Below are positions 2,842 through 21,868 of a stretch of DNA of 47,838 bases, in pieces; within the stretch, counting starts at the first letter, position 1; every line of letters begins with the position of its first letter. The notes below the pieces were generated by a model. That model worked only from the letters and a program-made list of their open reading frames with translations, searched no databases and was not told the DNA's origin. Source of the stretch: Limisphaerales bacterium (GTDB lineage Bacteria; Verrucomicrobiota; Verrucomicrobiia; Limisphaerales; SIBE01); NCBI GenBank assembly GCA_044225505.1, contig JBGAIN010000045.1, positions 1 through 47,838 of the forward strand, read 5' to 3'. Made by a program: the position numbers and the translations under genes.

Positions 2842-3216
2842 GTGTTCGGCCGATGGACCAGCTTCCCGGTAGTTGTCATGCTCTGCCTCGTCTTGGGGCT
2901 GCAGTGGACCGTTTTGCGTACCGTCGCGTGGGTGAACATGTTCGTCACCTTCGTTCAGACGGACTCGGTTTCTGAAGCCTTGACGAAGACCTTTGACGGG
3001 AAGCATCCATGCTCCCTCTGCAAATTTGTTAAAAGCGCTGAACAGTCCGAGAAGAAACAGGAGTCCATCAAGGTTGAGGCGAAGCTGGACTTGATATTGA
3101 CTCTAGAGAGCTGCCGACTCACGCCCCCGCCCGACTATACGTTGCTTCCTCTCCTGGACCATACGTCTTCCGGAAGAACCGAGTCACCGCCGGTTCCCCC
3201 TCCTCGGGCAGTCTGA
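2842..3216 (+). CDS. Small membrane CxxC protein with Pro-rich tail (DUF2946/CutF/CruR-like), copy 1
   Basis: N-terminal hydrophobic helices, TFDGKHPCSLC motif, C-terminus RTESPPVPPPRAV; paralog at 14552. Confidence 0.75.
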   Translation: MFGRWTSFPVVVMLCLVLGLQWTVLRTVAWVNMFVTFVQTDSVSEALTKTFDGKHPCSLCKFVKSAEQSEKKQESIKVEAKLDLILTLESCRLTPPPDYTLLPLLDHTSSGRTESPPVPPPRAV

Positions 3217-3567
3217 TCTATTCTTCTGTCGGCTCGGGCCATCGCGGCCTGAGTGCTTCGTCCGCTAAAGATTCCGTCTTTAGCACATCCGTCAATTTCT
3301 GATCGGAGCGACTTAACGCTATACGATCGCCTTTAGCCGTGAGTGCAAATTTGCGTGGGTTCACTCGGATTGAACCCTGGGTCCACATTCTGACGATCGC
3401 GGTCCGGGCTGGCAACGCTCCGAGACCAGAGGATGGTTTCGGGGCGACCTCGTTGCCCGGTGCATTGGGTGGGGACAACAGAATCTGAACCCCGTCGCCG
3501 ACGCCGAGCCCGCGACAGACGGACAGCACAGTGTTCGACTGGACCGCAGTGATGGTTGTCTCTTGGT

Positions 3568-4278
3568 ATGAAACCAAGCTCATCAAATCCCGAAAGCCAA
3601 AGTCAGGCTGAAGCCAGCGCTTTGCCGTTGCCTGATGAGGCTCGCCTGACCCGGCGCGAGTGGGTCGGCACGATGGGTTTTGGCCTCGCCATCGTCGGTG
3701 TGACCGGAGCGATTGCCTTCTTGACTGGCCAACGCCGCAAGACCTCGCTCGATCCCGCCGAGTTGGATCGGCCGCGCCGATTGATTCCATTCGCACTCAC
3801 GGAACGCAGTGGCCGCACGGTGACGGAAGCGGATCTGGCCGGAAAGATCGTGGTTGTCGACTTCGTGTTCACCGGCTGTTCTCTGAGCTGCCGCGCGGTG
3901 AACGACTCGATGGAGGAAATTCAGAGACTCACCGCGGGTGCGAAGGACGTGCAGCTGATTTCATTGACGGTCGATCCTCGCACCGACACGCCAGCGGTGC
4001 TGACTGCATTTGCGAACAGTTACCATGCGGACTCCAACCGTTGGCTGTTTCTGACGGGGGAAAAGCGTCAGCTTTACGGCCTTATTGAAACCAGCTTTAT
4101 TCCGAAGGCGCCCGAGCTAGAACACCTGATTCCCGGAGGCTTCGTCCGCACCGACTGCATCATGCTGGTGGACCCACTCGGCAATATTCACGCCTCTTTC
4201 GATGGGCTCGAACGCGACGCCGCGAGAACGGTGGTTTCAGCAATTGAAAACCTTCGTGCAAAGATTCAAGCCAAATGA
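3568..4278 (+). CDS. SCO1/SenC family protein (atypical: conserved His apparently absent)
   Basis: FALTERSGRTVTEADLAGKIVVVDFVFTGCSLSC (CxxxC), SLTVDPRTDTP and WLFLTG; N-terminal TM segment after LTRREW. Confidence 0.9.
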   Translation: MKPSSSNPESQSQAEASALPLPDEARLTRREWVGTMGFGLAIVGVTGAIAFLTGQRRKTSLDPAELDRPRRLIPFALTERSGRTVTEADLAGKIVVVDFVFTGCSLSCRAVNDSMEEIQRLTAGAKDVQLISLTVDPRTDTPAVLTAFANSYHADSNRWLFLTGEKRQLYGLIETSFIPKAPELEHLIPGGFVRTDCIMLVDPLGNIHASFDGLERDAARTVVSAIENLRAKIQAK

Positions 4279-5156
4279 ACTTATTCGTGATCTGCTTCAT
4301 CCTCGTCTCCGTAAGTGTTGCGGCGCGTTGCGGCGAGTCGACCTCAGCGACGAACCAGGCTGGCACGACACGCGGGATAATCCGCGAGATCGCTTCCGAT
4401 CATCGGACCGCCGTCATTCGTCATGAGGCGATTCCTGGATACATGCCAGCCATGACCATGGAGTTCAATCTGAAGAATACAAATGAGTTGAGCGGCATAG
4501 CCGTTGGAGACACGGTTACCTTCCGACTCACCGCAACCAAGGAAACCCATTGGATCGACAACATCCGCAAGGTTGCTTCAGCCACGAACAGTCCAACTCT
4601 AACGCGACGAGGAATCAAATCGTCCCCCGTTGCTGAACTTAAACCGGGCGACTTGCTGCCAGACTCTGACCTGCTCGCGGAGACCGGCAAAGTCATCCGA
4701 TTCTCGGACTTTCGCGGCAAGGCCGTGGCCTTCACGTTCATCTTTACCCGCTGTCCGCTGCCGGACTATTGCCCGCGCATGGGCAACCATTTTGCCAAAA
4801 CCCGCGAGTTGCTCCTCGCCAACACCAACGCGCCGGCGAATTGGCAGCTCCTCTCCATTTCATTCGACCCGGAGTTTGACACGCCTGCTGTCCTGTCGAA
4901 CTACGCCAAACTCTATCGTAAGGAGATGGCGGATCGTTGGCTCTTCACCGTGGCTTCACGGGGTGTACTCGAGCAACTGGCGCCTCGCCTTGATCTGATG
5001 GTTCGCCGTGAGCCCGGGGGAAGCATCTCGCATAATCTACGAACGGTAGTGCTCGATCCAATGGGCCGAATTCACCGGCAGTTCGACGGAAATCAATGGA
5101 CCCCGAAAGAACTGGCTGACGCGGTCGTTGAGGCTACAGGGAGAACCAACCGGTAA
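4275..5156 (+). CDS. CusF-like copper-binding domain fused to SCO domain
   Basis: Signal peptide; HEAIPGYMPAMTMEF (CusF-type His/Met site); FIFTRCPLPDYCP, SISFDPEFDTP and ISHNLRTVVLD; ATGA overlap with the upstream gene. Confidence 0.9.
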   Translation: MNLFVICFILVSVSVAARCGESTSATNQAGTTRGIIREIASDHRTAVIRHEAIPGYMPAMTMEFNLKNTNELSGIAVGDTVTFRLTATKETHWIDNIRKVASATNSPTLTRRGIKSSPVAELKPGDLLPDSDLLAETGKVIRFSDFRGKAVAFTFIFTRCPLPDYCPRMGNHFAKTRELLLANTNAPANWQLLSISFDPEFDTPAVLSNYAKLYRKEMADRWLFTVASRGVLEQLAPRLDLMVRREPGGSISHNLRTVVLDPMGRIHRQFDGNQWTPKELADAVVEATGRTNR

Positions 5157-7870
5157 TGATCGCATTTTACAGGTCCACCCAGCCGACGTTGGATGCGGGT
5201 CAACGGCAGATTGGAAGGTCTACTTATGGCAGGCGTCGACCTACGGTAGTGGCGTTCCCGTTGCGCCGCTCGTCTTGGGCCAGGTTCGTCTGGCTGGCGT
5301 TTGTCGCCGCCGGCCTGAGCTTCGCTTTTCAAGCGTTTGCTCAAACCAATTTTGCGCACTTCGAGGGACGGCAAGCCCATCCAATAGGACTGACGCCGGA
5401 TGGCACGCGGCTTCTGGCGGTCAACACACCGGATGCACGGCTCTCCGTTTTCCAGGCGCCACGGGGAAGCGACGCAGCGCCGGTGTTGATCTCGGAAATC
5501 CCGGTTGGGCTCGAACCGGTGTCGTTGCGCGCCCGCACCGATGATGAAGTTTGGATCGTCAATGAGCTCTCCGACAGCGTATCGGTGGTGTCTCTGAGCC
5601 GGCGGGTGGCATTCGACACCCTGCACTGCCCGGACGAGCCGGCCGATGTGATTTTCGCGCAGGGAAAGGCGTTCGTTAGCTGTGCTCGAAACAATTTGCT
5701 GCGCGTCTTCGATGCGGCGACAAGGGCGGAGTTAGGCACCATCGAGCTCGATGGCCTCAATCCTCGCTCGCTCGCCGTCGACACAGAAGGAGCTCGGGTG
5801 TATGCGGCCTTTCAGCTTTCGGGCAATCGCACGACGGTTCTTCCGGCGAGTGTGGCACCGCCACCGCCCGCACCGACCAATACCAATCTGCCCGCGCCGC
5901 CACAAACCGCCGTCATTGTCAAAGCGACTGATTCCAGGGTGCGCTTTACGGTGCTCGATCATGACGTGGCCGAGATCTCCGTCACTGAGCAGCGTGTTCT
6001 TCGCTATTTCACGGACGTGGGGACTAGCCTGTTCGATCTCGCCATCAGGCCAGGGGCGAACGAAGTCTGGGCGGTCAATACGGACGCGCGCAATGTCGTC
6101 CGGTTTGAGCCCGAATTGCGGGGACATTTCGTCGACAACCAGGTCACACGTATCACGCTTTCTCAGGGAGTGGTAAGCGCCTTTGACCTGAATCCTGGCC
6201 TCGACTACCGGCAACTTCCCAACCCTGCTGCTGCCGCCTCAGCACTCGCTCAGCCGACCGGACTCGTCTTTACGAAAGACGGGGTCCACGCGTGGCTGGC
6301 CTCGTTCGCTTCCGATCGCATCGCCAAGCTGGATGCGTTGAATGGGAAGGTTTTAGCTAGAGTGGAGGTTCGCATTCCGCCGGACTCTCACGTGGTGCGA
6401 GGACCCCGCGGTCTGGTGTTGGACGAAGGAACCCAACGCCTCTACGTCCTTAACAAGCTGGCTAACTCGATCAGCGTCGTGGATACCGTGAACCTCCAGA
6501 TTATTGCTGAAGTTCCGGCGGGTAGTTACGACCCGACACCGCAGGCGGTGGCGAAGGGGCGTGCCTTCCTTTTCGATGCGCGACTTTCGGGCAACGGGAC
6601 CGGATCCTGCGCCAGTTGCCACATTGATGCGGATCGCGACGGTTTGGCCTGGGATCTGGGCGATCCCGACGGCGACATGTCCGAGGTTAAGGGCGCAAAT
6701 TTTGCCTCTCATAACACTCAGCCGCAGGTGCGCCTGATGCACCCAATGAAGGGGCCGATGATGACGCAGACATTGCGCGGGTTGGCCCAAAACCAGTTGC
6801 TGCATTGGCGAGGTGACCGTGCCACGTTGGCCGACTTTAATCCGACGTTTCGCGACCTAATGGGTGGCATGCTCCTGCCCGACGACGACATGGCCGCGCT
6901 CAAACGCTATCTCGATTCGCTCCGACATCACCCAAACCCTCATCGGACTTTGGAGAACACCGCCCCCTCCAAGTTCAATGGCGGAAATTCGGCCCGCGGG
7001 AGTGCACTGTTTAACATCCACGAAAATCACTGTGCCGTGTGTCACGTGCTGCCCAGGGGGTCGGATAATAATGTTGATGACGCGCGGAACATTGCGGGCA
7101 GTCAGTTTATCAAGACGGCGCCGCTGCAGACCGTCTATCAGCGCGCCGTGCTGGACACAAGGGCTGGAGCCACAAATCTCAGCGGGTTTGGCCTGCTGCA
7201 CGACGGAACGGGAGGGTTTCGTTCATTACCCACGGTTCACTTCTATGAGCTGGATAACCTTGGCGGAGCAGATTTCGCGGACGTAAGTGCGTTCGTCATG
7301 ACCTTCGATACAGGTACGGTCCCGGCAGTCGGTTATCAACGCACCCTCAATGCCACGTCCGCGCGGGATCCTGTTGCCGAGGCGGAGTTGACTGTCGTGG
7401 AGAAACAAGCGCAAGCGGGCGCTTGCGACCTGATTGTGCATGGAAACGCGGGAAATCGGACCCGGCAATATCTATTCGAGAGAGAATCCTGGCAGTATCG
7501 CCCCGCCAGCACCAACGAACCTTCTCTCACCAGGGGTCAGTTGTTAGAACTCCTTGGGCCGGACGACGTGCTCACCTTTCTTGGCACTCTGCCGGGACGC
7601 GGGATTCAAGCGAGCATTGACCGCAACGAGAATGGCGTCCTTGATGGCGATGAGGAGGTCCCGAGGCTCGAAATAGCACGGGCAGGCCATGAACTCCGTG
7701 TGGTGTCGACCGCAACGGACCGCGGTTGGGTGCTGGAACAGGCTCCAAGCGCGGTTGGGCCTTGGGAGATGGCATCAATTCTGGCACTTCCCTTGGGCAC
7801 TGATCGGCTTGTCCTGGACGCATCCTCAATTCCGTCGAGTTTCTACCTCCGCCTGCGTCGGACTTGGTGA
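5156..7870 (+). CDS. Secreted YVTN/YncE beta-propeller fused to a di-heme cytochrome c peroxidase/MauG-like domain
   Basis: Propeller repeats (IPVGLEPVS, LYVLNKLANSISVVD); two heme motifs CASCH and CAVCH; TQTLRGL..LHWRGDR, KTAPLQ and LHDG resemble CcP/MauG blocks; ends FYLRLRRTW. Confidence 0.85.
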   Translation: MIAFYRSTQPTLDAGQRQIGRSTYGRRRPTVVAFPLRRSSWARFVWLAFVAAGLSFAFQAFAQTNFAHFEGRQAHPIGLTPDGTRLLAVNTPDARLSVFQAPRGSDAAPVLISEIPVGLEPVSLRARTDDEVWIVNELSDSVSVVSLSRRVAFDTLHCPDEPADVIFAQGKAFVSCARNNLLRVFDAATRAELGTIELDGLNPRSLAVDTEGARVYAAFQLSGNRTTVLPASVAPPPPAPTNTNLPAPPQTAVIVKATDSRVRFTVLDHDVAEISVTEQRVLRYFTDVGTSLFDLAIRPGANEVWAVNTDARNVVRFEPELRGHFVDNQVTRITLSQGVVSAFDLNPGLDYRQLPNPAAAASALAQPTGLVFTKDGVHAWLASFASDRIAKLDALNGKVLARVEVRIPPDSHVVRGPRGLVLDEGTQRLYVLNKLANSISVVDTVNLQIIAEVPAGSYDPTPQAVAKGRAFLFDARLSGNGTGSCASCHIDADRDGLAWDLGDPDGDMSEVKGANFASHNTQPQVRLMHPMKGPMMTQTLRGLAQNQLLHWRGDRATLADFNPTFRDLMGGMLLPDDDMAALKRYLDSLRHHPNPHRTLENTAPSKFNGGNSARGSALFNIHENHCAVCHVLPRGSDNNVDDARNIAGSQFIKTAPLQTVYQRAVLDTRAGATNLSGFGLLHDGTGGFRSLPTVHFYELDNLGGADFADVSAFVMTFDTGTVPAVGYQRTLNATSARDPVAEAELTVVEKQAQAGACDLIVHGNAGNRTRQYLFERESWQYRPASTNEPSLTRGQLLELLGPDDVLTFLGTLPGRGIQASIDRNENGVLDGDEEVPRLEIARAGHELRVVSTATDRGWVLEQAPSAVGPWEMASILALPLGTDRLVLDASSIPSSFYLRLRRTW

Positions 7871-7907
7871 CCTTTACTCCTAAACAACAAACTCCATTGA
7901 AAAGAAC

Positions 7908-10574
7908 ATGCTAAGAACACGACAACTCAAACATCATTGTCTCATCCTGGCGGCAGGAACTGCCGCGCTCGCGCAGCTCTCGCTGTGCGCACACGACGCT
8001 GAACCGATCGAGTTCAGCGAAATTGGCATTCCCTATAGCTGGGGCGTTGAACTGGATTCCCATGAATCGGTCGAGGTTGGACCCGCCCATGTCGGCGCGT
8101 GGAGTTGGGATGAAGACAGCTTTCCTGCAACCGCGCGAGGCTGGACCCATACTTCCGCGTGGGTGAAGCTGGACCTTACCGAGGGGGCGGCTTTGACGCT
8201 GACGCTTCAAAGCGCGGCGAACGTTCCCTGGCCTAGTCCCGAGGAACCGAACCGCCTGGCTGGGACAAATCTGTTTCCCTCATTCACGCTTTACCGTGGC
8301 TGGGATACAGACCCTGGAATCACCCAGGACGAAACTGGTGCGACCATCGATCAAAACCATAATTTTAACAATCGGGGCAACATCGACTGGGCCGAAGATG
8401 TAACCTATCTGGATCATCTAGAGAACGCTACCGCACATTCGGTAACGCGAACCTGGCGCCTGCCGGTGGGGCACTACACAATCAACCTGGGCGGCAACTC
8501 TCCGGTAACGCTCGCAGAAGGTCGACAAGGCTACAAGGCAACGCTTTCCGCAGCTCCACTGTCCACCGTGTTGACCAACGCCGAGCTACACTCCATCGAC
8601 TTTAGCGAGGTGGGTATCCCTTACGCCTGGGGCCTCGTGATGGATGAGCAGTCCACAGCCCAAACTCCGCCGGACCACGTTGGCGCGTGGAGTTGGGACG
8701 AGGACGGATTTCCGGAGACGGCCAAAGGCTGGACCCATACCTCGTCCTGGGTGAAGCTCCGTCTGCTTAAACCTTCGAAACTCACACTGCAACTGGCCAG
8801 CCTGGCCAACGTGCCATGGCCAAGTCCTGAGGAACCCAATCGTGTCGCGGGAACGAACCTGTTCCCCTCGTTCTCGCTTTACGCCGGTTGGGATACGGAC
8901 AAGGGGCTGATGACCGATACCAACGGCGTGAGCATTGATCAGAATCACAATTTCAACAACCGCGGCGCGATTGACTGGGCTGAAGACGTTCTCTATCTGG
9001 ACCACCTCGACAATTCCAGTGCGCATTCAGCCACGCGTACTTGGACTTTGCCTGCGGGCGACTACACGATCAATCTCGGGGGCAACTCGCCCGCGGTCGT
9101 CGCGGAAGGCCGCCAGGGTTATCAAGCCACCTTCACCACCACACCGCTTTCTGCTCCGGATGCGGCGATCTTGCCCGTCCTTTTCTCCGAGACTGGAGTT
9201 CCCTACGCCTGGAATCTGGTCATGAACAGTACCGCCACCGTCGAAACTCCACCGGCACATGTCGGCGCGTGGAGTTGGGATGAGGACTCGTTTCCGGAGA
9301 CGGCCAAGGGCTGGACCCACACGTCGGCCTGGGTGAAGCTCGACTTGCTGCAACCGGCACGGTTTACCTTGACCCTGGCCAACCGCGCGGACGTGCCTTG
9401 GCCGAGCAACGAGGATCCCAACCGGCTGGCGGGCACGAATCTTTTTCCATCGTTCACGCTTTATCGTGGCTGGGACACGGACGCCGGTTTGACGACCGAC
9501 ACCAACGGCGTGACCATTGATCAGAATCACAACTTCAACAACCGCGGCGCGATTGACTGGGCCGAAGACGTGGCCTACGTCGATCACCTGGATAACTCGA
9601 GCGCCCATGCGGTCGCGCGGACCTGGACCCTGGCCGCGGGGCGTTACACAATCAACCTGGGCGGCAACTCGCCCGCCACCCTTGCTGAAGGCCGCCAGGG
9701 CTACAAAGCGACCTTTACCACGACGCCCGTCACCACCCTCGCGAGCGGCTCCGCCACGATCGACTGGGATAAGGCAGCTTGGGACACGCTCGCGTCCGGC
9801 TTTGGCACACTGCCGGTCCTAACTCTGGCCGCGTTCTTCAATCAGGCCGACGCGAACGCGCTTGCTAGCGATCAATTGGTGACGAACGCCCAGGCTAATC
9901 CTTCCTATACTGGCCAGGTTTACGCGATGAATGGTCCGGTCGTCACCAATCTCGCCGGCCGCACCGCTCAACCCAGCACGTTCGCCTACGAGCCGGGAAA
10001 CTTGACTCACCATGCCGGCAGCATCGGACTTGGCGGTGCGGCTCGGTTTGCGGTTCTCGGTGGAGCCGGTGGAAATCTGCTCTACGGGGACTACACCTTA
10101 CAGTATGATAGCGCCCGGCTCGTATTCGGTGGTTCGGGTTGGTACCTTAAGGGCAATATTCCTCCAGCCGGGGCGGTGTTCGATCTCCTGAATGTCCAAA
10201 TCAAGGAGGCGACGAATTCGTTCACACTGGCTGGCGATCTGGGTGTGTCCTTTGAAGTCGCGAACCTTCTCTACGCCACAGCCAACGATGCGCTTAGGGA
10301 CGTTGGTAACTTCACCTTCACCGGGCAAGTGCGCACTCTCGAGGCGCCTGTCATCAGCCAGGTCGCTTTGGCGGGGGCCAACTTGATCGTACGCGGCTCG
10401 AACGGACTCCCCGGAGCCAGCTATGCGCTTTTGTCCTCGGGCAGCATCGGGTTGCCGAGGTCCGCCTGGACGACGAGCGCCGTCGGAGTGTTCGACGCGG
10501 AAGGCAAATGCTCGATTTCGCTTCCGATCTCGGCGGCCGCGACCGCACGGTTCTTTAATCTGCAGCAACCCTGA
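7908..10574 (+). CDS. Secreted protein with three tandem MopE/CorA-like copper-binding domains, an unknown beta-rich domain and a C-terminal 'FFxL' domain
   Basis: Signal peptide ending LCA|HD; three ~195-aa repeats each carrying HVGAWSWDED..GWTHTS.W...LFPSF.LY.GWDTD...NHNFNNRG.IDWAED; the WTH motif plus a distal His matches the MopE/CorA site as I recall it. Confidence 0.75.
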   Translation: MLRTRQLKHHCLILAAGTAALAQLSLCAHDAEPIEFSEIGIPYSWGVELDSHESVEVGPAHVGAWSWDEDSFPATARGWTHTSAWVKLDLTEGAALTLTLQSAANVPWPSPEEPNRLAGTNLFPSFTLYRGWDTDPGITQDETGATIDQNHNFNNRGNIDWAEDVTYLDHLENATAHSVTRTWRLPVGHYTINLGGNSPVTLAEGRQGYKATLSAAPLSTVLTNAELHSIDFSEVGIPYAWGLVMDEQSTAQTPPDHVGAWSWDEDGFPETAKGWTHTSSWVKLRLLKPSKLTLQLASLANVPWPSPEEPNRVAGTNLFPSFSLYAGWDTDKGLMTDTNGVSIDQNHNFNNRGAIDWAEDVLYLDHLDNSSAHSATRTWTLPAGDYTINLGGNSPAVVAEGRQGYQATFTTTPLSAPDAAILPVLFSETGVPYAWNLVMNSTATVETPPAHVGAWSWDEDSFPETAKGWTHTSAWVKLDLLQPARFTLTLANRADVPWPSNEDPNRLAGTNLFPSFTLYRGWDTDAGLTTDTNGVTIDQNHNFNNRGAIDWAEDVAYVDHLDNSSAHAVARTWTLAAGRYTINLGGNSPATLAEGRQGYKATFTTTPVTTLASGSATIDWDKAAWDTLASGFGTLPVLTLAAFFNQADANALASDQLVTNAQANPSYTGQVYAMNGPVVTNLAGRTAQPSTFAYEPGNLTHHAGSIGLGGAARFAVLGGAGGNLLYGDYTLQYDSARLVFGGSGWYLKGNIPPAGAVFDLLNVQIKEATNSFTLAGDLGVSFEVANLLYATANDALRDVGNFTFTGQVRTLEAPVISQVALAGANLIVRGSNGLPGASYALLSSGSIGLPRSAWTTSAVGVFDAEGKCSISLPISAAATARFFNLQQP
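8007..9730 (+). repeat. Three intragenic tandem repeats of ~585 bp
   Basis: TGG of the GWTH motif at 8142, 8730 and 9312 (spacing 588 and 582 bp); long near-identical blocks such as GGCGCGTGGAGTTGGGA. Confidence 0.95.
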
Positions 10575-10580
10575 TTCAGG

Positions 10581-11384
10581 GTGTGGCGTTTGATCTCAAC
10601 GTCAATCAGGACTGCCGGCGCGCGCTCGCGCGTCGGCAGTCCGCTTCATGCTGGCAGGGCATTTACGTTGACTGAACTCCTGGTCGTGATCGCGGTGATC
10701 AGTGTCCTGGCCGCGCTCTTACTGCCAGCGCTCTCTCAAGCCAAACGCCGGGCCAAACGGACCGTCTGCCTGAATAACCTCAAGCAGTTCGTCCTGGCGG
10801 ATACGATTTATGCCAACGATCACGGTCAACTTCCTCCCGTCAATGACTTCGTTCCAACCAGCATCACTGTCGACCGCTTGTCAATGATGGCCGCGACGCT
10901 TGGCTTGGCGGTTCCAGCTGGTTCCGCTTCCACGTGGCCGAAACGCGTCCAACAGCCGCAGTGGATCAATTGTCCCATGGCCGCGGAATCCGGCTACGCG
11001 GAGGGGATCACACTTGGCGGAGGACTGTATACGGGGTACTCGTATGTGGGCGGTCTTGAAAAATCCCGCATGCTGGAGCTGAAGTTCGCCACGGTGCTTC
11101 ATCCCGATCATGCCGCCGACAGCAAAAACACCCGCCGCGGCGTGCTTTGGGCGGACGTGCTCGACGAGTTCCTTTTAACGGACCCCAGGCGGTTCGAATT
11201 TTTTCATACTCGCAAGCTGGTCAAGTATCCGGACTTTCGATACCACGCCGAAGACTTAGAGGGCATTCACCGGGCATGGTCGGATGGTTCGGTAGAATGG
11301 ACTTCGGCAAAGCGCCTGAATCTCTCCGAGGCCGCTAGCTCGGACCTCCAGATTAAGCATCTATTGGGAAACTTCTATTACTGA
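10581..11384 (+). CDS. Prepilin-type N-terminal cleavage/methylation protein (DUF1559-like, with H-X9-DG-like C-terminal motif)
   Basis: [39 protein letters not shown]-terminal [13 protein letters not shown]. Confidence 0.9.
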
Positions 11385-11399
11385 CAAATTCACAAACTT

Positions 11400-12260
11400 A
11401 TGAATTGCAACTCACTTAATCGACGCGATTGGCTCCAGCTGCTGGCGCTCGCCTCTGTTGGCGGCGCGCTGACTTCGCGCGGGGTGGCAGCGACTCAAGC
11501 CGACGGCGCGACGAAGCACACCTCCACCTCCCCGGCCGATCATCAAGAGCAATTGCGGATGGGGAGCGAACAGATCGCGATCCTTGTTTATCCTGAGTTC
11601 ACGGCGCTCGATGCGCTCGGGCCGCACTACGCACTTGCCGGCATGATGGGTGCCAGCGTGCGTTTCGTCGCCAAAACCCTTGAGCCCGTGCCATGTGAAG
11701 GCGCGAGCAAAGGAGGCTTTTGCGTGAAGCCGCATGTCACCTTCGCGGATTGCCCCGAGACACTCGACTTGCTGCTCGTCCCGGGCGGATTGACCGGCAC
11801 TTTCGCCGCCATTGAGGACAAGGACACGATCAAGTTTCTCCAAAGCCGGGCCGCGAAAACAAAACTCCTCGGCAGTGTCTGTACGGGGTCCATCGTCCTT
11901 GGCGCAGCGGGATTGCTCCAAGGCCGCAAAGCCACGAGCCACTGGCAGATGCTCGACGTGCTGAAGGATTGCGGGGCGATACCTGTTGCCGAGCGCATTG
12001 TTTTCGACGGCACGGATCGCGTGACCGCGGCCGGTGTCAGCGCTGGCCTGGACCTGGGGCTGGAACTCGTGCGCCGCTATCGCGGTGACTTTTACGCCAA
12101 GGGCGTGCAGTTGCTCGGCGAGTATGATCCGCAACCGCCATTCCAAGGCGGTGGCACCCCGCGTACCGCTGACAAGACGGTTGTAGACATGTTGAACACC
12201 ATGCACGCCCCGCTGGTAGAAAGGTTCAAGCTAGCTATTGGGCACGCCAAGGATAGGTAA
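11400..12260 (+). CDS. DJ-1/PfpI family protein (isonitrile hydratase-like), Tat-exported
   Basis: NRRDWLQ twin-Arg signal; FTALDALGP, LLVPGG, SVCTGS (catalytic Cys), TAAGVSAGLD and EYDPQPPF. Confidence 0.9.
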   Translation: MNCNSLNRRDWLQLLALASVGGALTSRGVAATQADGATKHTSTSPADHQEQLRMGSEQIAILVYPEFTALDALGPHYALAGMMGASVRFVAKTLEPVPCEGASKGGFCVKPHVTFADCPETLDLLLVPGGLTGTFAAIEDKDTIKFLQSRAAKTKLLGSVCTGSIVLGAAGLLQGRKATSHWQMLDVLKDCGAIPVAERIVFDGTDRVTAAGVSAGLDLGLELVRRYRGDFYAKGVQLLGEYDPQPPFQGGGTPRTADKTVVDMLNTMHAPLVERFKLAIGHAKDR

Positions 12261-14516: not shown

Positions 14517-14544
14517 TTGACGTTGTGGGGGTTTCCGGTAGCAT
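14517..14544 (+). promoter_or_regulatory. Putative sigma70 promoter giving a leaderless transcript of CxxC leader ORF copy 2
   Basis: TTGACG-N16-TAGCAT with an ATG at 14552, 7 nt downstream. Confidence 0.4.
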
Positions 14545-14551
14545 TATGGAC

Positions 14552-14932
14552 ATGCGTTCCGTAGTTCGATTGACCACCGTCACCGTGCTGGTCCTCGCGC
14601 TGGGCCTGCATTGGGTGGTGCTCCAAACGATTGCGTGGACGGGCATGATAATCAACTACTCACGTGACGCTTCGTTTTCTCAGGCGGTGAGCAGGACATT
14701 CGACGGCCAGCATCCCTGTTCAATGTGCACGGTGATCAAGAAAGCTCGGGCTGAGCAAAAGCAGCACGAGCAGGAAGAGCCGGTCAAGCCCGGGACAAAG
14801 CTGGACTTGGCTCTCGTTTGGGAGTGTCCTGCATCTGATTTCTTCTGCAAACATGAGCGGATGGCCGTCCAAGAGGACGATGCTCCCAGCCGTTCCTACG
14901 CTCCTCCCAAGCCGCGTCCCCGGCCGGCTTGA
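14552..14932 (+). CDS. Small membrane CxxC protein with Pro-rich tail (DUF2946/CutF/CruR-like), copy 2
   Basis: LGLHWVVLQTIAW..TFDGQHPCSMC..KLDL..RSYAPPKPRPRPA; clear paralog of 2842-3216. The start could also be 14546. Confidence 0.75.
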   Translation: MRSVVRLTTVTVLVLALGLHWVVLQTIAWTGMIINYSRDASFSQAVSRTFDGQHPCSMCTVIKKARAEQKQHEQEEPVKPGTKLDLALVWECPASDFFCKHERMAVQEDDAPSRSYAPPKPRPRPA

Positions 14933-15178: not shown

Positions 15179-16462
15179 TTGACGAATAACAATGTGAATA
15201 CCGGTGATATTACCTTGCCGTGGTTGTTGCGACTGCGCTGGGCAGCGGTCACAGGGCAGACCGCGACGATTGCCTTTTGCACGGACGTATTGCGGATCCG
15301 GTTGCCGCTGGGGCCGCTGCTGGCCGTGCTTCTGGTGGCTTTAATCAGCCAGCTGACTCTATGGTTCGCAGGGCAGCGATTGGCGAAACCCCGGCACGCG
15401 ATCATTGGAGGCGCCCTCGCTATGGATACTCTATTGCTCACAGCATTGCTCTATTTCACCGGCGGTCCGCATAATCCATTCAGCGCCTTTTACCTGATTC
15501 ATATCGCGATGGCCGCTTCGCTGTTGGGAGCGGGTTGGACCTGGGGATTGCTCTGCCTGGCCATGACGTGTTTCGGCGGACTGTTCTGGGCCAACGTCCC
15601 ACTGGCGTTTCCAACCAGTGGCGAACCGATTTGCGGTTTGATGCCGATACAACTTCATTTGACCGGAATGTTTGTTGCCCTGGTCCTGACCGGCGTATGC
15701 CTAGCTTGGTTTGTGGCGCGGTTAAACAGCCAACTCCGCGCTCAGTCGGCGGCGCGCCATGCCGCGGAGATGAAATCCGAGCGCGAAGCGCGCTTCGCTT
15801 CGTTGGCCACGCTGGCAGCCGGATTCGCCCACGAAATCAATTCGCCACTCGCTACCATCGCGGTGGCAGCCCGAGAATTGGAATTGGACGCAGAACTAAC
15901 AACATCGTCAGCCGCGCTGGCGAGCGAGGCCCGGCTTATCCGCGTAGAAGTCGAGCGATGTCGAGAACTTCTGGGTCGGTTGCGCGCCTCGGCCAGTGAT
16001 GGCACGCATGACCCTCCGGTAGACTGGCATGCGACAGAATTGGCGCAGGTATTGCAAGCGTCGCTGCCCTTGTCGCACTCAGCCCGGTTGGTATTCGGAC
16101 TTCCGGGTCCTGCCGTCTGTTTTCGCGCCCCACGGTTCGCGTTGCTGCAAGCACTGACCAATCTCATTGATAACGCTATGGACGCCGCACCGCCCGGGTC
16201 GGCCATCCGCCTGGAGATTGTGCGAGAGGACGACACAGTCAGTTTCACAGTGAGTGATCGAGGGCCGGGCTTGCCGCAATCGGTGCTGGCGCGGTTGGGT
16301 GAACCGTTTGTCACGACTAAAGAGCCGGGGCGAGGCACGGGCCTCGGTTTGTTCTTGGTCCGCCGTTTTGCTGAACAGATGGGGGGGAGCTTTTGCATCG
16401 AATCACCTCAAGAGGGTGGCACGAGGGCAAAGCTGGAACTTCCTCAAGAGGCCACTGCATGA
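15179..16462 (+). CDS. regB: RegB/PrrB/ActS-family redox-sensing histidine kinase
   Basis: LRWAAVTGQ, TGGPHNPF (GGxxNPF quinone site), AHEINSPL H-box, ERCRELL redox Cys, and N/G1/G2 boxes. Exact start uncertain (15179 or 15194). Confidence 0.85.
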   Translation: MTNNNVNTGDITLPWLLRLRWAAVTGQTATIAFCTDVLRIRLPLGPLLAVLLVALISQLTLWFAGQRLAKPRHAIIGGALAMDTLLLTALLYFTGGPHNPFSAFYLIHIAMAASLLGAGWTWGLLCLAMTCFGGLFWANVPLAFPTSGEPICGLMPIQLHLTGMFVALVLTGVCLAWFVARLNSQLRAQSAARHAAEMKSEREARFASLATLAAGFAHEINSPLATIAVAARELELDAELTTSSAALASEARLIRVEVERCRELLGRLRASASDGTHDPPVDWHATELAQVLQASLPLSHSARLVFGLPGPAVCFRAPRFALLQALTNLIDNAMDAAPPGSAIRLEIVREDDTVSFTVSDRGPGLPQSVLARLGEPFVTTKEPGRGTGLGLFLVRRFAEQMGGSFCIESPQEGGTRAKLELPQEATA

Positions 16463-16998
16463 AAATGACACGTGTTTTGTTGGTGGAGGATGACGATGCT
16501 TTTAGAGAACGGCTTGCGACTGCGCTGATTCGTCGCCATCTCACGGTGTGGCAGGCTGAGAATCCCGCCGAAGCCAAAGCCGTCGCGCTCAGCGAGCCTA
16601 TCGATGGGGCGGTGATTGATCTGCGAATGCCGGGCGGGTCGGGGTTGGATGTGGTGCGCGAAGTTCATGAGCTGCAACCGGCGGCGCGGCTGATTGTTTT
16701 GACGGGTTATGGCAGTATCGCGACTGCACTGGAAGCCGTTCGCCTCGGCGCGGCCGACTACGTAACCAAGCCCGCGGATGCCGATCAAATCCTCGCGGCA
16801 TTGCGCGGACGGCGAGCACCGCACTTCGATCCCGGGGAATTATCCAAAACGATTCCCAGTCTGGATCGTGTGGAGTGGGAGTACATTCAACGGGTCCTGG
16901 CTGAAACTGGCGGCAACATATCGCGCTCTGCCCGTCTGCTCGGTCTGGACCGCCGCTCTTTGCAGCGCAAGCTGAGCAAGTATCCGCCGCAGCGCTGA
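16459..16998 (+). CDS. regA: RegA/PrrA/ActR-family response regulator
   Basis: REC domain (VEDD, IDLRMPGGSG, LTGYGSIATA) and SLDRVEWEYIQRVL..GGNISRSARLLGLDRRSLQRKL HTH; ATGA overlap with regB. Confidence 0.92.
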   Translation: MKMTRVLLVEDDDAFRERLATALIRRHLTVWQAENPAEAKAVALSEPIDGAVIDLRMPGGSGLDVVREVHELQPAARLIVLTGYGSIATALEAVRLGAADYVTKPADADQILAALRGRRAPHFDPGELSKTIPSLDRVEWEYIQRVLAETGGNISRSARLLGLDRRSLQRKLSKYPPQR

Positions 16999-18518: not shown

Positions 18519-21431
18519 TTATCTCGAAATTAGCCGAAAGAACATCGTTCCTGCCGTCGCGGGCACGGTGATCGTGTTGCCAGGCGCCGCGAGAGGTTGC
18601 CAGTTTTCAGTTGGCAACTCGTTGGCCTGTTGCAGTGTCCAGTTGGCGACGTTGTCTGGCCAGGAAACCACTAGGTTGCCACCGGTTGACCGGACAATGT
18701 TCAACGTGGGCTGACGGATGGGGATGCCCGTGCTGGTGGCGTTGAGGGTTAAGCTGGTGCCGCCGGCACCGGCCAGCGAATAGGTGAACCCATCCGCAAG
18801 CCCTTGCACGGTCACATCGGAGAAATTGCCGAGGACCAAGCCGCCTTTCACCACTTCGAAGATCTGTCCATTGGTCGGAGCGAAACCGTCGCGGAAGACG
18901 ATGGTCAAGTGGCCGGCGAGTGTCACGGTTCCGGTGGCTTCGATCTGGTCGTAGCTTACGCCTGCGATAGGGCCGCCCACTTCGATTTCCAGCGAGGTGC
19001 CCGTTGCCAAAGTCAGATCGCCTTCGATGGTGGCTTTTCCTGGCGACGAACCGGGCAGGAACGTTCCACCTTGTCTTAGCAGCAGCGAGCCGATCAGCTT
19101 GCCACCGAGACGAAACTTTCCCTGGTTGCCAATGAGGACAGTGCCAGGAATGGCAGCCTCGCTGACCTGTCCGACCGTGGCCGCACCTCCGTTCAGTCGG
19201 AGCAAACCGGGTTTGAACACCTCGAGATTAAACCCGGCCTGCAGCAGACCGCCAGAGGTCACATTGATCTCGCCGGGCCCAGTGGGGGCTTGGGAGGTGA
19301 TGCCTCCAATGCTGACGAGATTGAGGGTGCGCATCACCGATCCGGATCCCGAGATGGTGGCTACTCCTGTAGCTCCAGGCGCGCCGCTGCCAATGGTGAT
19401 TTGTTCGAAATTCACAAGGCCTCCGTTAGTCACGCTTAGCGTGCCCGCACCTTGCGCTCCGACGATCAATTCGCCTCGTTCTCCAATCCAGGCCGATCCC
19501 ACCCCATTCACCGTCGCTTGGCCGACCGAGCCAGGCTGGAAGGCTACTCTGGCAAGTCCACGGTCGTTGGCGAGGGCACCGGGCAACTCGACTCTCGATC
19601 CTTGCTCGATGCTCAACCGCCCGGCGCCAGCCTCCCCCACGTGCAGGACGCTGGCAACCGTCAGTGTCGAACCGGCGCCCGTCAGGTGCAGCACGTTAGT
19701 TCCAGTGTTAGACCCGACGAGCACCGTCGGTGCGGTCGCCAAGCCACCCGCAAAAATCGTCATTTGACTCGCCCCGGCCCGCCCAATCTCCAGAGTATCC
19801 CCCACTTCCAGACTGGTCCCAGCGCCAATGATTTCCAAGGTTCCGTCTGATCCTGCATTGACCCCCACGGTACACTTTGAGGCAAGGATGCGACCCCGGC
19901 TCCGAACACTGAGCAGGCCCTTGCCGCCAGTTCCGACGCCCGTTTCTCTGGCCAGCCGGGTGTCCAGGGCCGACGGGGACGGCAGCGATCCACCATTCAC
20001 GTCAACCTTACCCTCGCTGCCTGGCAGAAGGCCAACGGCCATGGCCGTACCGCGAACCTCCACGCGACCTCCGTCACCCAAATTCAATGTAGCTGCGCCA
20101 ATGGAGTTGCCGACGGCCATGCCATCCCGGGCGAGCCAGAATGAATTGGCCCCGAAGACCGAGCCGTCGGAATTTCCGCCCACCTTGCCGCCATCGAGGT
20201 AGGCTTTGGCGCAATCCAACGTGCCGCCATCCTCCACAGTCAACGATGCTTCACCTGAAGTGCCCAGATCCAGGTTTCCCGACAGCACCAAGGCCGATCC
20301 AGCTCCCGAGACGAGGCAGCCGGCGCTAGTCGTCGTAGCGCTCGGCCCGACGAATTCCCCGCCGGTGATGCGGCCACCATTCTTGATTTGGAGAGTGGAG
20401 TCCTCGGCCTTGTTGGCATACGAAAAGACCGATCCGGCATCGCGAACGATTACCGACGTCTTGCTGAGGCTGGCCGCGCTGCCATGGCCCTGGTTTTGCA
20501 CAGTGACTTTCTGAGGGCCGTCCCCGGTGATTCTGCCGGCGACGGCAAGACTCGACCCATTGCCGTCCACTGTATACCAGGCGTTATCAGCGAGGGCTCC
20601 GGCAGAAAACGTTGCGCCTGATTTAATGCTGATATCAGCGTAGAGCAGTCCCGGCACGGTTGTGCCCGATACACGCATGGTGTTGCCGCCGCCGTCCAAC
20701 AGCCAATCGCTCAGCGACGCGGTATCGGCGTCTACGGTCGAGCCGTTGATCGCGTGTCCGCTCCCTTTGAGCAGACCGGCGTGAAGCCGGCTTCCGTCCA
20801 GTTCGGCCAGGACCGTGAGTTCATCCCCTGCCAAAAGGGAACCGCCCGTGAGGAAGCACTTGCCCACATTTAACGCCCCTGTGTGGTGCCATTCAGAGCC
20901 GGATTCAAGCCGCGGCTGGGGAAGAGAGTAGCCATTGAGCTGAGCGGATGACGTAATCCGTGCCCCATTGACCGCTTTTATCCTCGTTTGGATCCCACTG
21001 GTTCCGAAATCAAAACGGTCCATCGTGAGTCCCGACCCATCGATCAGGATGAGTCCATCGCTCAGGCTGCTGAAAGGTCCCGTCCGAAGCGTCCCGCCGC
21101 CCTGCAGCACCACCGAATGGCCGCCTTGAATGTAGCTTCCGGCCGCATAGTCACCATCGAGTTGAAAGGTCACGGTGCCGATCATTTCCGTTGTGCCAGC
21201 GGAGGCGCCGTCGCAGGTCACCGTGTAGGTGCCATCCCTAAAAATAGCGAAGTCGCCAGCGCCTGGATAACCGCCGCCACCGTCCGCATTTTGCCAACTG
21301 GAAGGGGCGTTGAAAGCCCCGCTGACGGGCGGGTTGACCCATGCGAACGTAGCTGCTTTGGCGTGGGTACCTGCCAGGAACAAAAGGGAACTGCACAACA
21401 AGTGTGCCAACGGGCGGCTCATAGTCATCAT
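18519..21431 (-). CDS. Secreted beta-helix protein with T5SS/PEP-CTERM-associated repeats and C-terminal 'FFRL' domain
   Basis: Signal peptide ending AKA; repeats such as V.G.GS......L.VG..G.G.L.V..GG; PGSSPGKATIEGDL..LEIEVGG..YDQI; ends MFFRLISR. Confidence 0.85.
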   Translation of the reverse strand: MMTMSRPLAHLLCSSLLFLAGTHAKAATFAWVNPPVSGAFNAPSSWQNADGGGGYPGAGDFAIFRDGTYTVTCDGASAGTTEMIGTVTFQLDGDYAAGSYIQGGHSVVLQGGGTLRTGPFSSLSDGLILIDGSGLTMDRFDFGTSGIQTRIKAVNGARITSSAQLNGYSLPQPRLESGSEWHHTGALNVGKCFLTGGSLLAGDELTVLAELDGSRLHAGLLKGSGHAINGSTVDADTASLSDWLLDGGGNTMRVSGTTVPGLLYADISIKSGATFSAGALADNAWYTVDGNGSSLAVAGRITGDGPQKVTVQNQGHGSAASLSKTSVIVRDAGSVFSYANKAEDSTLQIKNGGRITGGEFVGPSATTTSAGCLVSGAGSALVLSGNLDLGTSGEASLTVEDGGTLDCAKAYLDGGKVGGNSDGSVFGANSFWLARDGMAVGNSIGAATLNLGDGGRVEVRGTAMAVGLLPGSEGKVDVNGGSLPSPSALDTRLARETGVGTGGKGLLSVRSRGRILASKCTVGVNAGSDGTLEIIGAGTSLEVGDTLEIGRAGASQMTIFAGGLATAPTVLVGSNTGTNVLHLTGAGSTLTVASVLHVGEAGAGRLSIEQGSRVELPGALANDRGLARVAFQPGSVGQATVNGVGSAWIGERGELIVGAQGAGTLSVTNGGLVNFEQITIGSGAPGATGVATISGSGSVMRTLNLVSIGGITSQAPTGPGEINVTSGGLLQAGFNLEVFKPGLLRLNGGAATVGQVSEAAIPGTVLIGNQGKFRLGGKLIGSLLLRQGGTFLPGSSPGKATIEGDLTLATGTSLEIEVGGPIAGVSYDQIEATGTVTLAGHLTIVFRDGFAPTNGQIFEVVKGGLVLGNFSDVTVQGLADGFTYSLAGAGGTSLTLNATSTGIPIRQPTLNIVRSTGGNLVVSWPDNVANWTLQQANELPTENWQPLAAPGNTITVPATAGTMFFRLISR

Positions 21432-21868
21432 TTGCGGTCGAAACCGTCTCAGCACGCGGACCGAAACACAAGCAGACAAGCGCCTTAGCCGCAAATCCAG
21501 TCCGATAAAAGCGCCTGCGAGCTCCTTGTAGAGAATACTTTGAAGGCCGAAACCAGCTGTGCGAGAACAGCTTTCTCCGGTCCGATCCCGCCCGCCGCTC
21601 GACATCGAATCTTCAAGTGAAGGGGATTGCGTGCCAGCGGCAGCTGCATTCCATGCATTCTCGTCGACCCCAAGTAACCCGAGAAGAGGGGCCCGAAAAT
21701 CAGGCGGTAGACCCCAAAACCGGGTTCAATCTTAAGCAATGCCGTTGGTCCGGAACTGTCTGCTCTGGCGACACGAAAAAAAACAGAGGAAGATCACTGC
21801 ATGGCGAGGCGCCGCTCGGAGTGGGACTCGACTTGCAGGAGGGGTGCCCGCCACTTAAGCTGTTTCGC

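Follow-up and report, generated by a model that had tools for sequence, protein, structure and literature searches.

Do Verrucomicrobiota carry a copper-capture device of the kind studied in a few methanotrophs, and is the di-heme protein encoded beside it the enzyme that matures it? The question is raised by two genes, here called A (5156..7870) and B (7908..10574), in a stretch of 47,838 nucleotides (nt; the window, meaning the whole stretch of DNA that was analysed) from contig JBGAIN010000045.1 of assembly GCA_044225505.1, a Limisphaerales bacterium (SIBE01). All positions of the locus are on the plus strand, and the two genes lie on the same strand with 37 nt between them. A first-pass annotation, made from the sequence alone, had read B as a triple MopE/CorA-like protein and A as its tryptophan-oxidising maturase. 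Here, we argue that B is a copper-regulated surface Cu(I) scavenger whose tryptophans would be oxidised to kynurenine by A, a reading to which we give a probability of roughly 60%. The facts about MopE*, CorA and MbnH on which the annotation drew agree with the published accounts (PMC3423442, PMC3912023, PMC11951088).

Fold and ligand set of protein B

Protein B (888 residues) is predicted from sequence and profiles to consist of a signal peptide, three CorA/MopE*-like domains, a domain of ~200 residues unrelated to them and a C-terminal tail. The three domains (7998..8555, assigned by profile and an AlphaFold2 model; 8589..9149 and 9180..9740, assigned by repeat comparison) are ~186 residues long and recur with a period of 196 and 194 residues. 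Each holds a GWTH motif (W79, W275 and W469, at nt 8142, 8730 and 9312) with its histidine two residues after the tryptophan (H81, H277 and H471), followed by a QNHNF motif (H151, H347 and H541). The distance from the tryptophan to this distal histidine is exactly 72 residues in all three, as the first-pass annotation had counted in the first. Its motifs stand, but its description of the repeats as near-identical does not, the pairwise identities being 127/185, 132/182 and 143/184 (69, 73 and 78%). Three domains are present, but their number is no special feature: relatives carry 1 to 5 GWTH repeats per open reading frame (ORF), and Methyloterricola oryzae has tandem CorA-type domains. The divergence of the repeats and the multi-repeat relatives (up to five GWTH motifs) rule out an assembly duplication as their source.

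CorA and MopE* were reached from B by profiles only, because a single-sequence phmmer search of the PDB found no match up to E 10. The whole three-repeat protein scores 38.2 bits against PF18252 (Cu_bind_CorA; cut-off 27), and single-domain homologs score 17-23 bits, under that cut-off. A six-frame search of the genome with PF18252 gave no match, but its positive control was silent too. With a profile of 35 sequences (domain 1 and 34 of 52 homologs), CorA (E 1.1e-4) and MopE* (E 0.0087) are the sole credible matches in the PDB; a profile widened to 62 sequences matches CorA with E 4.1e-6. In the alignment from the wider profile, with residues counted from the alignment, W62, H64 and H114 of CorA fall on the columns of the triad of B. 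These three residues are the copper ligands of CorA (PMC3912023).

The AlphaFold2 model of domain 1 (pLDDT, predicted local distance difference test, 86.4) points the same way. CorA and MopE* hold the first two ranks in Foldseek (E 7e-6 and 8e-6), and VIA-align superimposes the model on CorA of Methylomicrobium album BG8 (PDB: 4BZ4) with Z 11.8 over 141 residues (root-mean-square deviation 2.8) and on MopE* of Methylococcus capsulatus Bath (PDB: 2VOV) with Z 11.1 over 155 residues (3.4), the next best match having Z 9.2. The sequence identity of domain 1 to the two proteins is only 16-17%. The proposed likeness of B to MopE* and CorA is thus upheld by the PF18252 score and by both top fold matches.

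The triad is complete in 157 of the 179 domains that cover all three positions among 191 retrieved proteins, and in 168/176 domains of genome loci, two counts that come from overlapping sets. It ranks among the most conserved positions of the subfamily, in which further tryptophan and histidine residues are also conserved. From fold and alignment, the tryptophan, the histidine at +2 and the distal histidine may meet in space, the convergence for which the annotation had proposed a check. Judged from profiles and the model, B is a divergent member of the CorA/MopE* family on every feature testable here, and it very probably binds copper.

At four loci (L016, L051, L058 and L063) the intact gene is followed by a second CorA-fold gene that has lost all three ligand residues; this gene may offer a natural negative control or encode an accessory subunit. 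Once processed, B is predicted to begin with a histidine (window 7992-7994) that is kept in several close relatives and could possibly form an extra metal site. The fourth domain (9741..10337) has a weak HtaA-like lead (Atlas score 0.82, a lead only). It occurs as a free PEP-CTERM-like gene in the non-verrucomicrobial CorA-like loci L083, L085 and L153, and it could be a third component of the system, perhaps heme-related.

Architecture and motifs of protein A

Profile and structure searches divide protein A (904 residues; an alternative later start is possible near nt 5261) into a signal peptide, a YVTN beta-propeller, a di-heme domain and a C-terminal region of ~170 residues that ends in a short tail. 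The two CxxCH motifs, the CcP/MauG-like blocks and the propeller of the first-pass annotation were all recovered: the motifs lie at residues 485 and 626, and A scores above the cut-offs of PF03150 (CCP_MauG; 29.7 bits, cut-off 25.6), PF10282 (propeller; 31.8 bits, cut-off 21.7) and TIGR02276 (YVTN; 49.1 bits, cut-off 27.85). The order of propeller and di-heme domain and the WDLGD motif are those of hydrazine synthase (HZS) beta and gamma. Fused HZS beta-gamma-like proteins are widespread and have a MauG-like tryptophan (PMC12758564). Unlike hydrazine synthase, A has an H-x-Y motif, and no HZS alpha-like neighbour was found among the window ORFs scanned. A hydrazine synthase function is ruled out by the score of 44.9 bits against NF052342 (hydrazine synthase beta-gamma), under its cut-off of 1250, and by the tryptophan that A keeps where hydrazine synthase has a histidine (gamma144).

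We aligned 70 sequences, A and 69 of its top 120 matches. The first heme motif (C485, C488 and H489; 6608..6622) is invariant in 70/70, as are W551 in the sequence HWRGD (6806..6808), H695 and Y697 (7238..7246); the second heme motif (C626, C629 and H630; 7031..7045) is assigned by sequence motif and alignment. W551 is a candidate inter-heme tryptophan, and we infer its equivalence to W93 of MauG from the motif and from section 8 of PMC12758564. H695-x-Y697 is a candidate for the sixth ligand of heme 2, through either residue: its position makes Y697 plausible, and H695 could take this place by analogy with the bis-His heme of HZS gamma. The profile alignments of A to PDB entries stop short of the ligand of MauG or MbnH.

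Canonical bacterial cytochrome c peroxidase (bCcP) has a methionine as the distal ligand of its C-terminal heme. In the alignments of A homologs, unlike canonical bCcP, no conserved methionine was found after the second heme motif. The propeller/di-heme architecture as such is common, being present in 7262 of 8000 scored candidates. In an IQ-TREE tree of 98 heme domains (9 duplicate rows dropped; a quick run without bootstrap, with the H-x-Y motif inside the alignment) all 70 H-x-Y rows fall on one branch (SH-aLRT, the Shimodaira-Hasegawa-like approximate likelihood-ratio test, 99), and the motif is present in 0/28 others. Among the loci, A homologs are spread over two frames in L001 and L057, by frameshift or sequencing error, and L019 has two tandem A homologs ahead of its CorA-like gene.

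Linkage of the two genes in both directions

Starting from B, the best 80 of 140 confirmed stretches gave 76 loci, with search patterns that favour the verrucomicrobial subfamily. The heme domain of A is encoded directly upstream in 58 of these loci, and in 6 further ones the end of the upstream ORF matches long A homologs (48-98% identity). Setting aside 11 loci with <100 nt upstream, an A homolog is directly upstream in 64/65 informative loci, so the co-occurrence of the two genes that had been foreseen extends to other genomes. Of the 76 genome records, 74 are named for Verrucomicrobiota taxa, and the closest relatives (70-77% identity) include Limisphaerales, in line with the annotation's guess of a verrucomicrobial source.

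Starting from A, 77 of 401 genomes of the order match the heme domain. The top tier comprises eight genomes with E <1e-100 and a ninth (G392), counted without a motif check, in which A is split across two contigs, one piece lying 0.6 kb from a CorA-like match. A strong CorA-like match is present in 9/9 genomes with a top-tier A homolog and in 0/68 with only more distant propeller/di-hemes. Another nine genome matches were weak (E 2e-6 to 8e-4) and covered only positions 162-235 of the domain profile; we treated them as tail matches and left them out. With them, one of the 68 genomes (G558) would also have a match. Among 30 loci, the CorA-like gene comes next downstream in 7/7 top-tier loci with downstream DNA versus 0/22 second-tier loci, 3 of which have <200 nt downstream.

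The same division holds for the genes ahead of A. Of the 49 top-tier loci that have 2 kb or more of upstream DNA, 40 have a homolog of the small leader ORF described below no farther than 3.5 kb upstream, by a hidden Markov model built mostly from top-tier loci, and an SCO gene is present in 18/49. In 21 control loci (20 of the 22 second-tier loci, fetched more widely, and a paralog from the same genome) the CorA-like gene, the leader and the SCO gene are each found in 0/21. Of these propeller/di-hemes, only the H-x-Y clade travels with CorA-like genes, the CutF/CruR-like leader and often SCO. The system is patchy, since A was matched in only 2/301 genomes of a phylum-wide sample.

A second, MauG-type di-heme beside the same fold

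The CorA-like subfamily has 221 representatives at 50% clustering, and its named members come from Verrucomicrobiota, Nitrospira (including Ca. N. nitrosa) and Nitrosomonas. Methyloterricola oryzae has a protein named CorA, and in the protein that represents its 90%-identity cluster (P0181) a classical CorA domain is fused to a domain of the subfamily of B. A metagenome scan seeded with a Nitrospira member gave 73 loci: 13 with an H-x-Y type di-heme, 26 with a MauG-type di-heme of about 630-950 residues (mostly ~630-700), 5 with a partial di-heme and 29 with none, the last mostly on short contigs. Non-verrucomicrobial loci thus often pair the domain with a different di-heme, which in these 26 loci has a tyrosine at the position of MauG Y294; for example, an ungapped match of the L120 di-heme to MauG (503-539 versus 260-296) places Y537 at position 294. 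In MauG, Y294 is the axial tyrosine (PMC6405878). From the sequences, one substrate fold appears beside two unrelated di-heme architectures, and in both of them a tyrosine after heme 2 is conserved. The best indirect argument for A as a maturase is that the same fold is paired with two unrelated tyrosine-bearing di-hemes.

The metagenome loci vary further. In six Tyr-type di-hemes (L105, L107, L120-L122 and L140) leucine or tyrosine replaces the inter-heme tryptophan, a BthA-like trait. Nine loci (L103, L108, L111, L112, L113, L118, L119, L123 and L128) have propeller/di-hemes without H-x-Y near the CorA-like genes, mostly on the opposite strand, often head-to-head and sometimes beside a Tyr-type di-heme. 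In the Nitrospira-type loci L081, L082, L083, L085 and L095, 3-6 separate CorA-like genes stand in tandem; their products have VPLPA/PEP-CTERM-like tails, and usually one or two di-heme genes lie alongside. In the genome of the Limisphaerales bacterium itself, no close relative of the CorB-type di-heme of ~630 residues was found; its other di-hemes are a bCcP with a Met-type motif and further propeller fusions. Three propeller/di-heme genes (G000:C184:6203-9142, C32 and C328) had no CorA-like neighbours that we could find, and an HZS-gamma-like histidine motif stands at the end of the proteins from C32 and C328.

Copper genes, the leader and localisation

The first-pass inventory had A and B right and missed their surroundings: an SCO1 gene, a CusF-SCO fusion and a leader ORF upstream, the fourth domain of B and the C-terminal tails of both proteins. 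The SCO1/SenC copper chaperone (3556..4278; PF02630, 71.9 bits) has a CxxxC motif, and its usual histidine ligand is not apparent by eye. The next gene (4275..5156) encodes a predicted periplasmic copper chaperone in which CusF (PF11604, 57.5 bits) is fused to SCO1 (PF02630, 48.7 bits).

The operon is headed by the leader ORF (2842..3216), a candidate copper-sensing regulator of 124 residues with a hydrophobic N-terminus, a CxxC motif and a proline-rich C-terminus. CruR (DUF2946) and CutF leaders are likewise small, with a hydrophobic N-terminal segment, CxxC and a proline-rich end, and stand first in a copper operon. The leader had no match in Pfam or NCBIfam, PF11162 (DUF2946) included, and RAPP was found in the last 20 residues of 0/70 leader homologs. 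The CutF-like rules (PMC9973294) ask for <150 residues, PP in the last 15 residues, an N-terminal export signal and a same-strand gene within 1000 nt. The leader agrees with them in its length, its proline-rich end, the gap of 339 nt to the next gene and an export signal judged by eye. By sequence it lies outside the CruR definition (DUF2946/RAPP; PMC9426467) and within the CutF-like rule set. With copper, CruR represses and CutF activates, and because the two act oppositely, we take the direction of regulation from CorA and MopE.

The leader occurs six times in the genome. The second copy in the window (14525-14932) precedes a histidine kinase/Fis-type response regulator pair (15179-16998), which we take to be RegB/RegA-like.

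The C-terminal tail of B (~79 residues, 10338..10574) is a putative export or sorting domain. This type of short tail, common to A and B, was found on 229/7712 ORFs of the genome in a search whose seed included A and B themselves, with 0 in a reversed-sequence control. In Prosthecobacter-type loci the homologs of both A and B have homologous C-terminal extensions of ~560 residues (31-46% identity), and many single-domain B homologs have PEP-CTERM-like tail ends. The same short tail ends a repeat protein of 883 residues at window 36741-39392.

As for users of copper, the genome (95% complete) encodes COX2, the only copper enzyme found among four families searched; NosZ and multicopper oxidase were not found, nor was pmoB, but the positive control of the pmoB search was silent.

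Proposed mechanism and its alternatives

We propose that the leader couples the operon to copper and most likely switches it on in scarcity. A and B would be exported by Sec, and their matching C-terminal tails would sort both to the cell surface. There, A, as a c-type di-heme, would use H2O2 or O2 to reach a high-valent state like that of MauG and MbnH, with W551 lying between its hemes and heme 2 ligated by Y697 or H695, and oxidise the tryptophan of each GWTH motif, the propeller perhaps docking the substrate. By analogy with CorA and MopE*, the tryptophans of B probably become kynurenine. Each matured domain would then bind one Cu(I) through two histidines beside the kynurenine, with up to 3 per chain, and the copper could be handed via CusF/SCO to the CuA site of cytochrome c oxidase. 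The fold, the ligand set, the gene linkage, the clade-specific motif and the copper-gene context are the observed part of this model.

In this model the A-B system works like CorA/CorB and MopE/SACCP. It has in common with CorA/CorB the W-x-H...H ligand set, the signal peptide and the co-encoded di-heme gene, and with MopE* the GWTH motif and nearly the same spacing from the tryptophan to the distal histidine (73 residues in MopE*). It differs from CorA/CorB in the low identity (16% to CorA), the three domains with an extra domain and a tail, the propeller-fused HZS beta-gamma-like partner in place of CorB, the verrucomicrobial host without a pmoB match (control silent, as above) and the SCO, CusF and CutF-like leader genes of the operon. 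In comparison with MopE*/SACCP, B has no PF11617 region in the Pfam scan and the enzyme has a different architecture. MbnH and MbnP follow the same logic, an adjacent di-heme oxidising a tryptophan to kynurenine at a copper site (PMC11951088), and MbnPH-like genes also occur in CruR-headed operons (PMC9426467), but MbnP differs in its fold and in its site, which is of the WxW/His/Met kind.

Several observations weigh against this interpretation. On the enzyme side, A falls far under the cut-offs of MbnH (TIGR04039; 30.4 of 362.85 bits) and MauG (TIGR03791; 24.7 of 443.85 bits). By sequence it is a di-heme of the bCcP/MauG superfamily, but by cut-off it is no MauG, MbnH or hydrazine synthase. 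Among solved structures, its propeller is closest to HZS beta and its heme domain to HZS gamma (best PDB match, E 6.5e-13 by profile, Z 7.4 with a model of pLDDT 58), and the second heme of HZS gamma is bis-His and thought to carry electrons (PMC12758564). That heme-domain model is poor, and Foldseek found no match for it at E 0.001. An hhalign comparison between the clades did not place Y697 on the MauG-type tyrosine (probability 6%, no credible alignment). On the side of B, the MopE* alignment ends at residue 159, short of H203, a copper-site residue of MopE* (PMC3423442).

The genomic evidence has exceptions too. A different gene stands upstream of the CorA-like gene in L070, and G570 (80% complete) has a CorA-like domain at a contig end and no A match. 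L098 (16.7 kb) and L081 (10.5 kb) carry CorA-like genes, but no di-heme was found within these stretches, and we saw no gene for an outer-membrane copper transporter in the window. The loci are kin and several genomes are in both samples, so the counts are descriptive, not independent. Finally, how kynurenine arises in CorA/MopE is given as to be determined in a 2025 review (PMC11951088), a knockout of a CorB homolog grew better (PMC3912023), and the maturase role is unproven even for CorB and SACCP (PMC11951088, PMC3912023); MbnH/MbnP is the proven case of kynurenine made by a di-heme (PMC11951088, PMC3621798).

The alternative that survives best, though we consider it unlikely, keeps B as a kynurenine- or His-based Cu(I) binder and makes A a surface redox partner or peroxide scavenger. 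As a redox partner, A would have H695 as a ligand of a bis-His heme 2 and use this heme to reduce Cu(II) to Cu(I). In either role of A, the tryptophan would be oxidised by copper or reactive oxygen chemistry or left unmodified. The bis-His heme of HZS gamma and an H695 as invariant as Y697 fit such a partner, and for the knockout in M. alcaliphilum a non-enzymatic route has been put forward (PMC3912023). Propeller/di-hemes without H-x-Y also flank CorA-like genes beside a Tyr-type di-heme (L108, L109 and L112), and because they occur in such loci, a second job for propeller/di-hemes is possible. However, the two unrelated di-heme architectures beside the domain both keep a tyrosine after heme 2, CorA bound copper only when made endogenously while recombinant CorA did not (PMC3912023), and MbnH does form kynurenine in MbnP (PMC11951088), all of which favour A as the maturase.

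We think it improbable that the CorA fold of B serves another metal or ligand, or that A installs another tryptophan modification (hydroxy-Trp, a quinone or a cross-link) in a surface redox protein. The low identity to CorA and MopE*, the further conserved tryptophan and histidine residues, the other tryptophan products of MauG-family enzymes (PMC6405878) and CutF-like leaders that are in some cases not copper-specific (PMC9973294) would allow it, but the ligand triad aligns exactly with that of CorA, and the neighbours are SCO, CusF and a leader with CxxC. It is very improbable that B, as a jelly-roll repeat protein, has a structural or adhesive role at the surface and is passively co-inherited with A. 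Its fold is common to collagen-binding and P domains (Z 8-9), long B homologs have Ig-like and Calx-beta domains and site-less paralogs are kept at four loci, but few positions are as well conserved as the triad, other lineages show the di-heme linkage again with a different enzyme, and copper genes co-occur.

Other features of the window

Downstream of B are a prepilin-like gene and a DJ-1/PfpI gene (10581..12260), an arrangement found in only four close relatives (L001, L004, L006 and L007). Further along, the window encodes a protein of 1028 residues with type V secretion system (T5SS)/PEP-CTERM-associated repeats (18519-21605) and, on the minus strand, a multiheme cytochrome with MtrC/MtrF-like domains (45569-47824). 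An Rfam scan of the window gave no match.

Implications

The distinctive part of the system is the enzyme clade and its range, not the number of repeats. In the open-access literature, where most subscription papers are absent, we found no paper on the pairing of an A-type enzyme with a CorA-like protein and none on verrucomicrobial CorA-like proteins. The genes mopE and corA have been surveyed by BLAST (PMC6189053); neither name turned up in the supplement text searched.

More tentatively, and with the odds somewhat against it, one may propose that a clade of HZS beta-gamma-like proteins gained an H-x-Y motif and turned into a Tyr-ligated bis-Fe(IV) tryptophan oxygenase on a path separate from those of MauG, MbnH and CorB, and that in Verrucomicrobiota it took the place of the CorB-type maturase. 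In that case, copper capture through kynurenine would be widely used by bacteria starved of copper, Nitrospira and Nitrosomonas included, with at least two separately recruited enzymes and a new copper-sensing leader family.

The compact two-gene pairs make the undetermined origin of kynurenine in CorA and MopE directly testable by co-expression, and the family offers single-domain substrates of ~240 residues and four natural site-less paralogs. If true, our reading would for the first time assign a function to one clade of the HZS beta-gamma-like proteins and bear on the origin of the anammox enzyme. It would also widen the range of a copper-scavenging device that has been studied in a few methanotrophs, so that it takes in heterotrophic Verrucomicrobiota and the nitrifiers Nitrospira and Nitrosomonas, a range that would bear on copper competition in fresh water and treatment plants.

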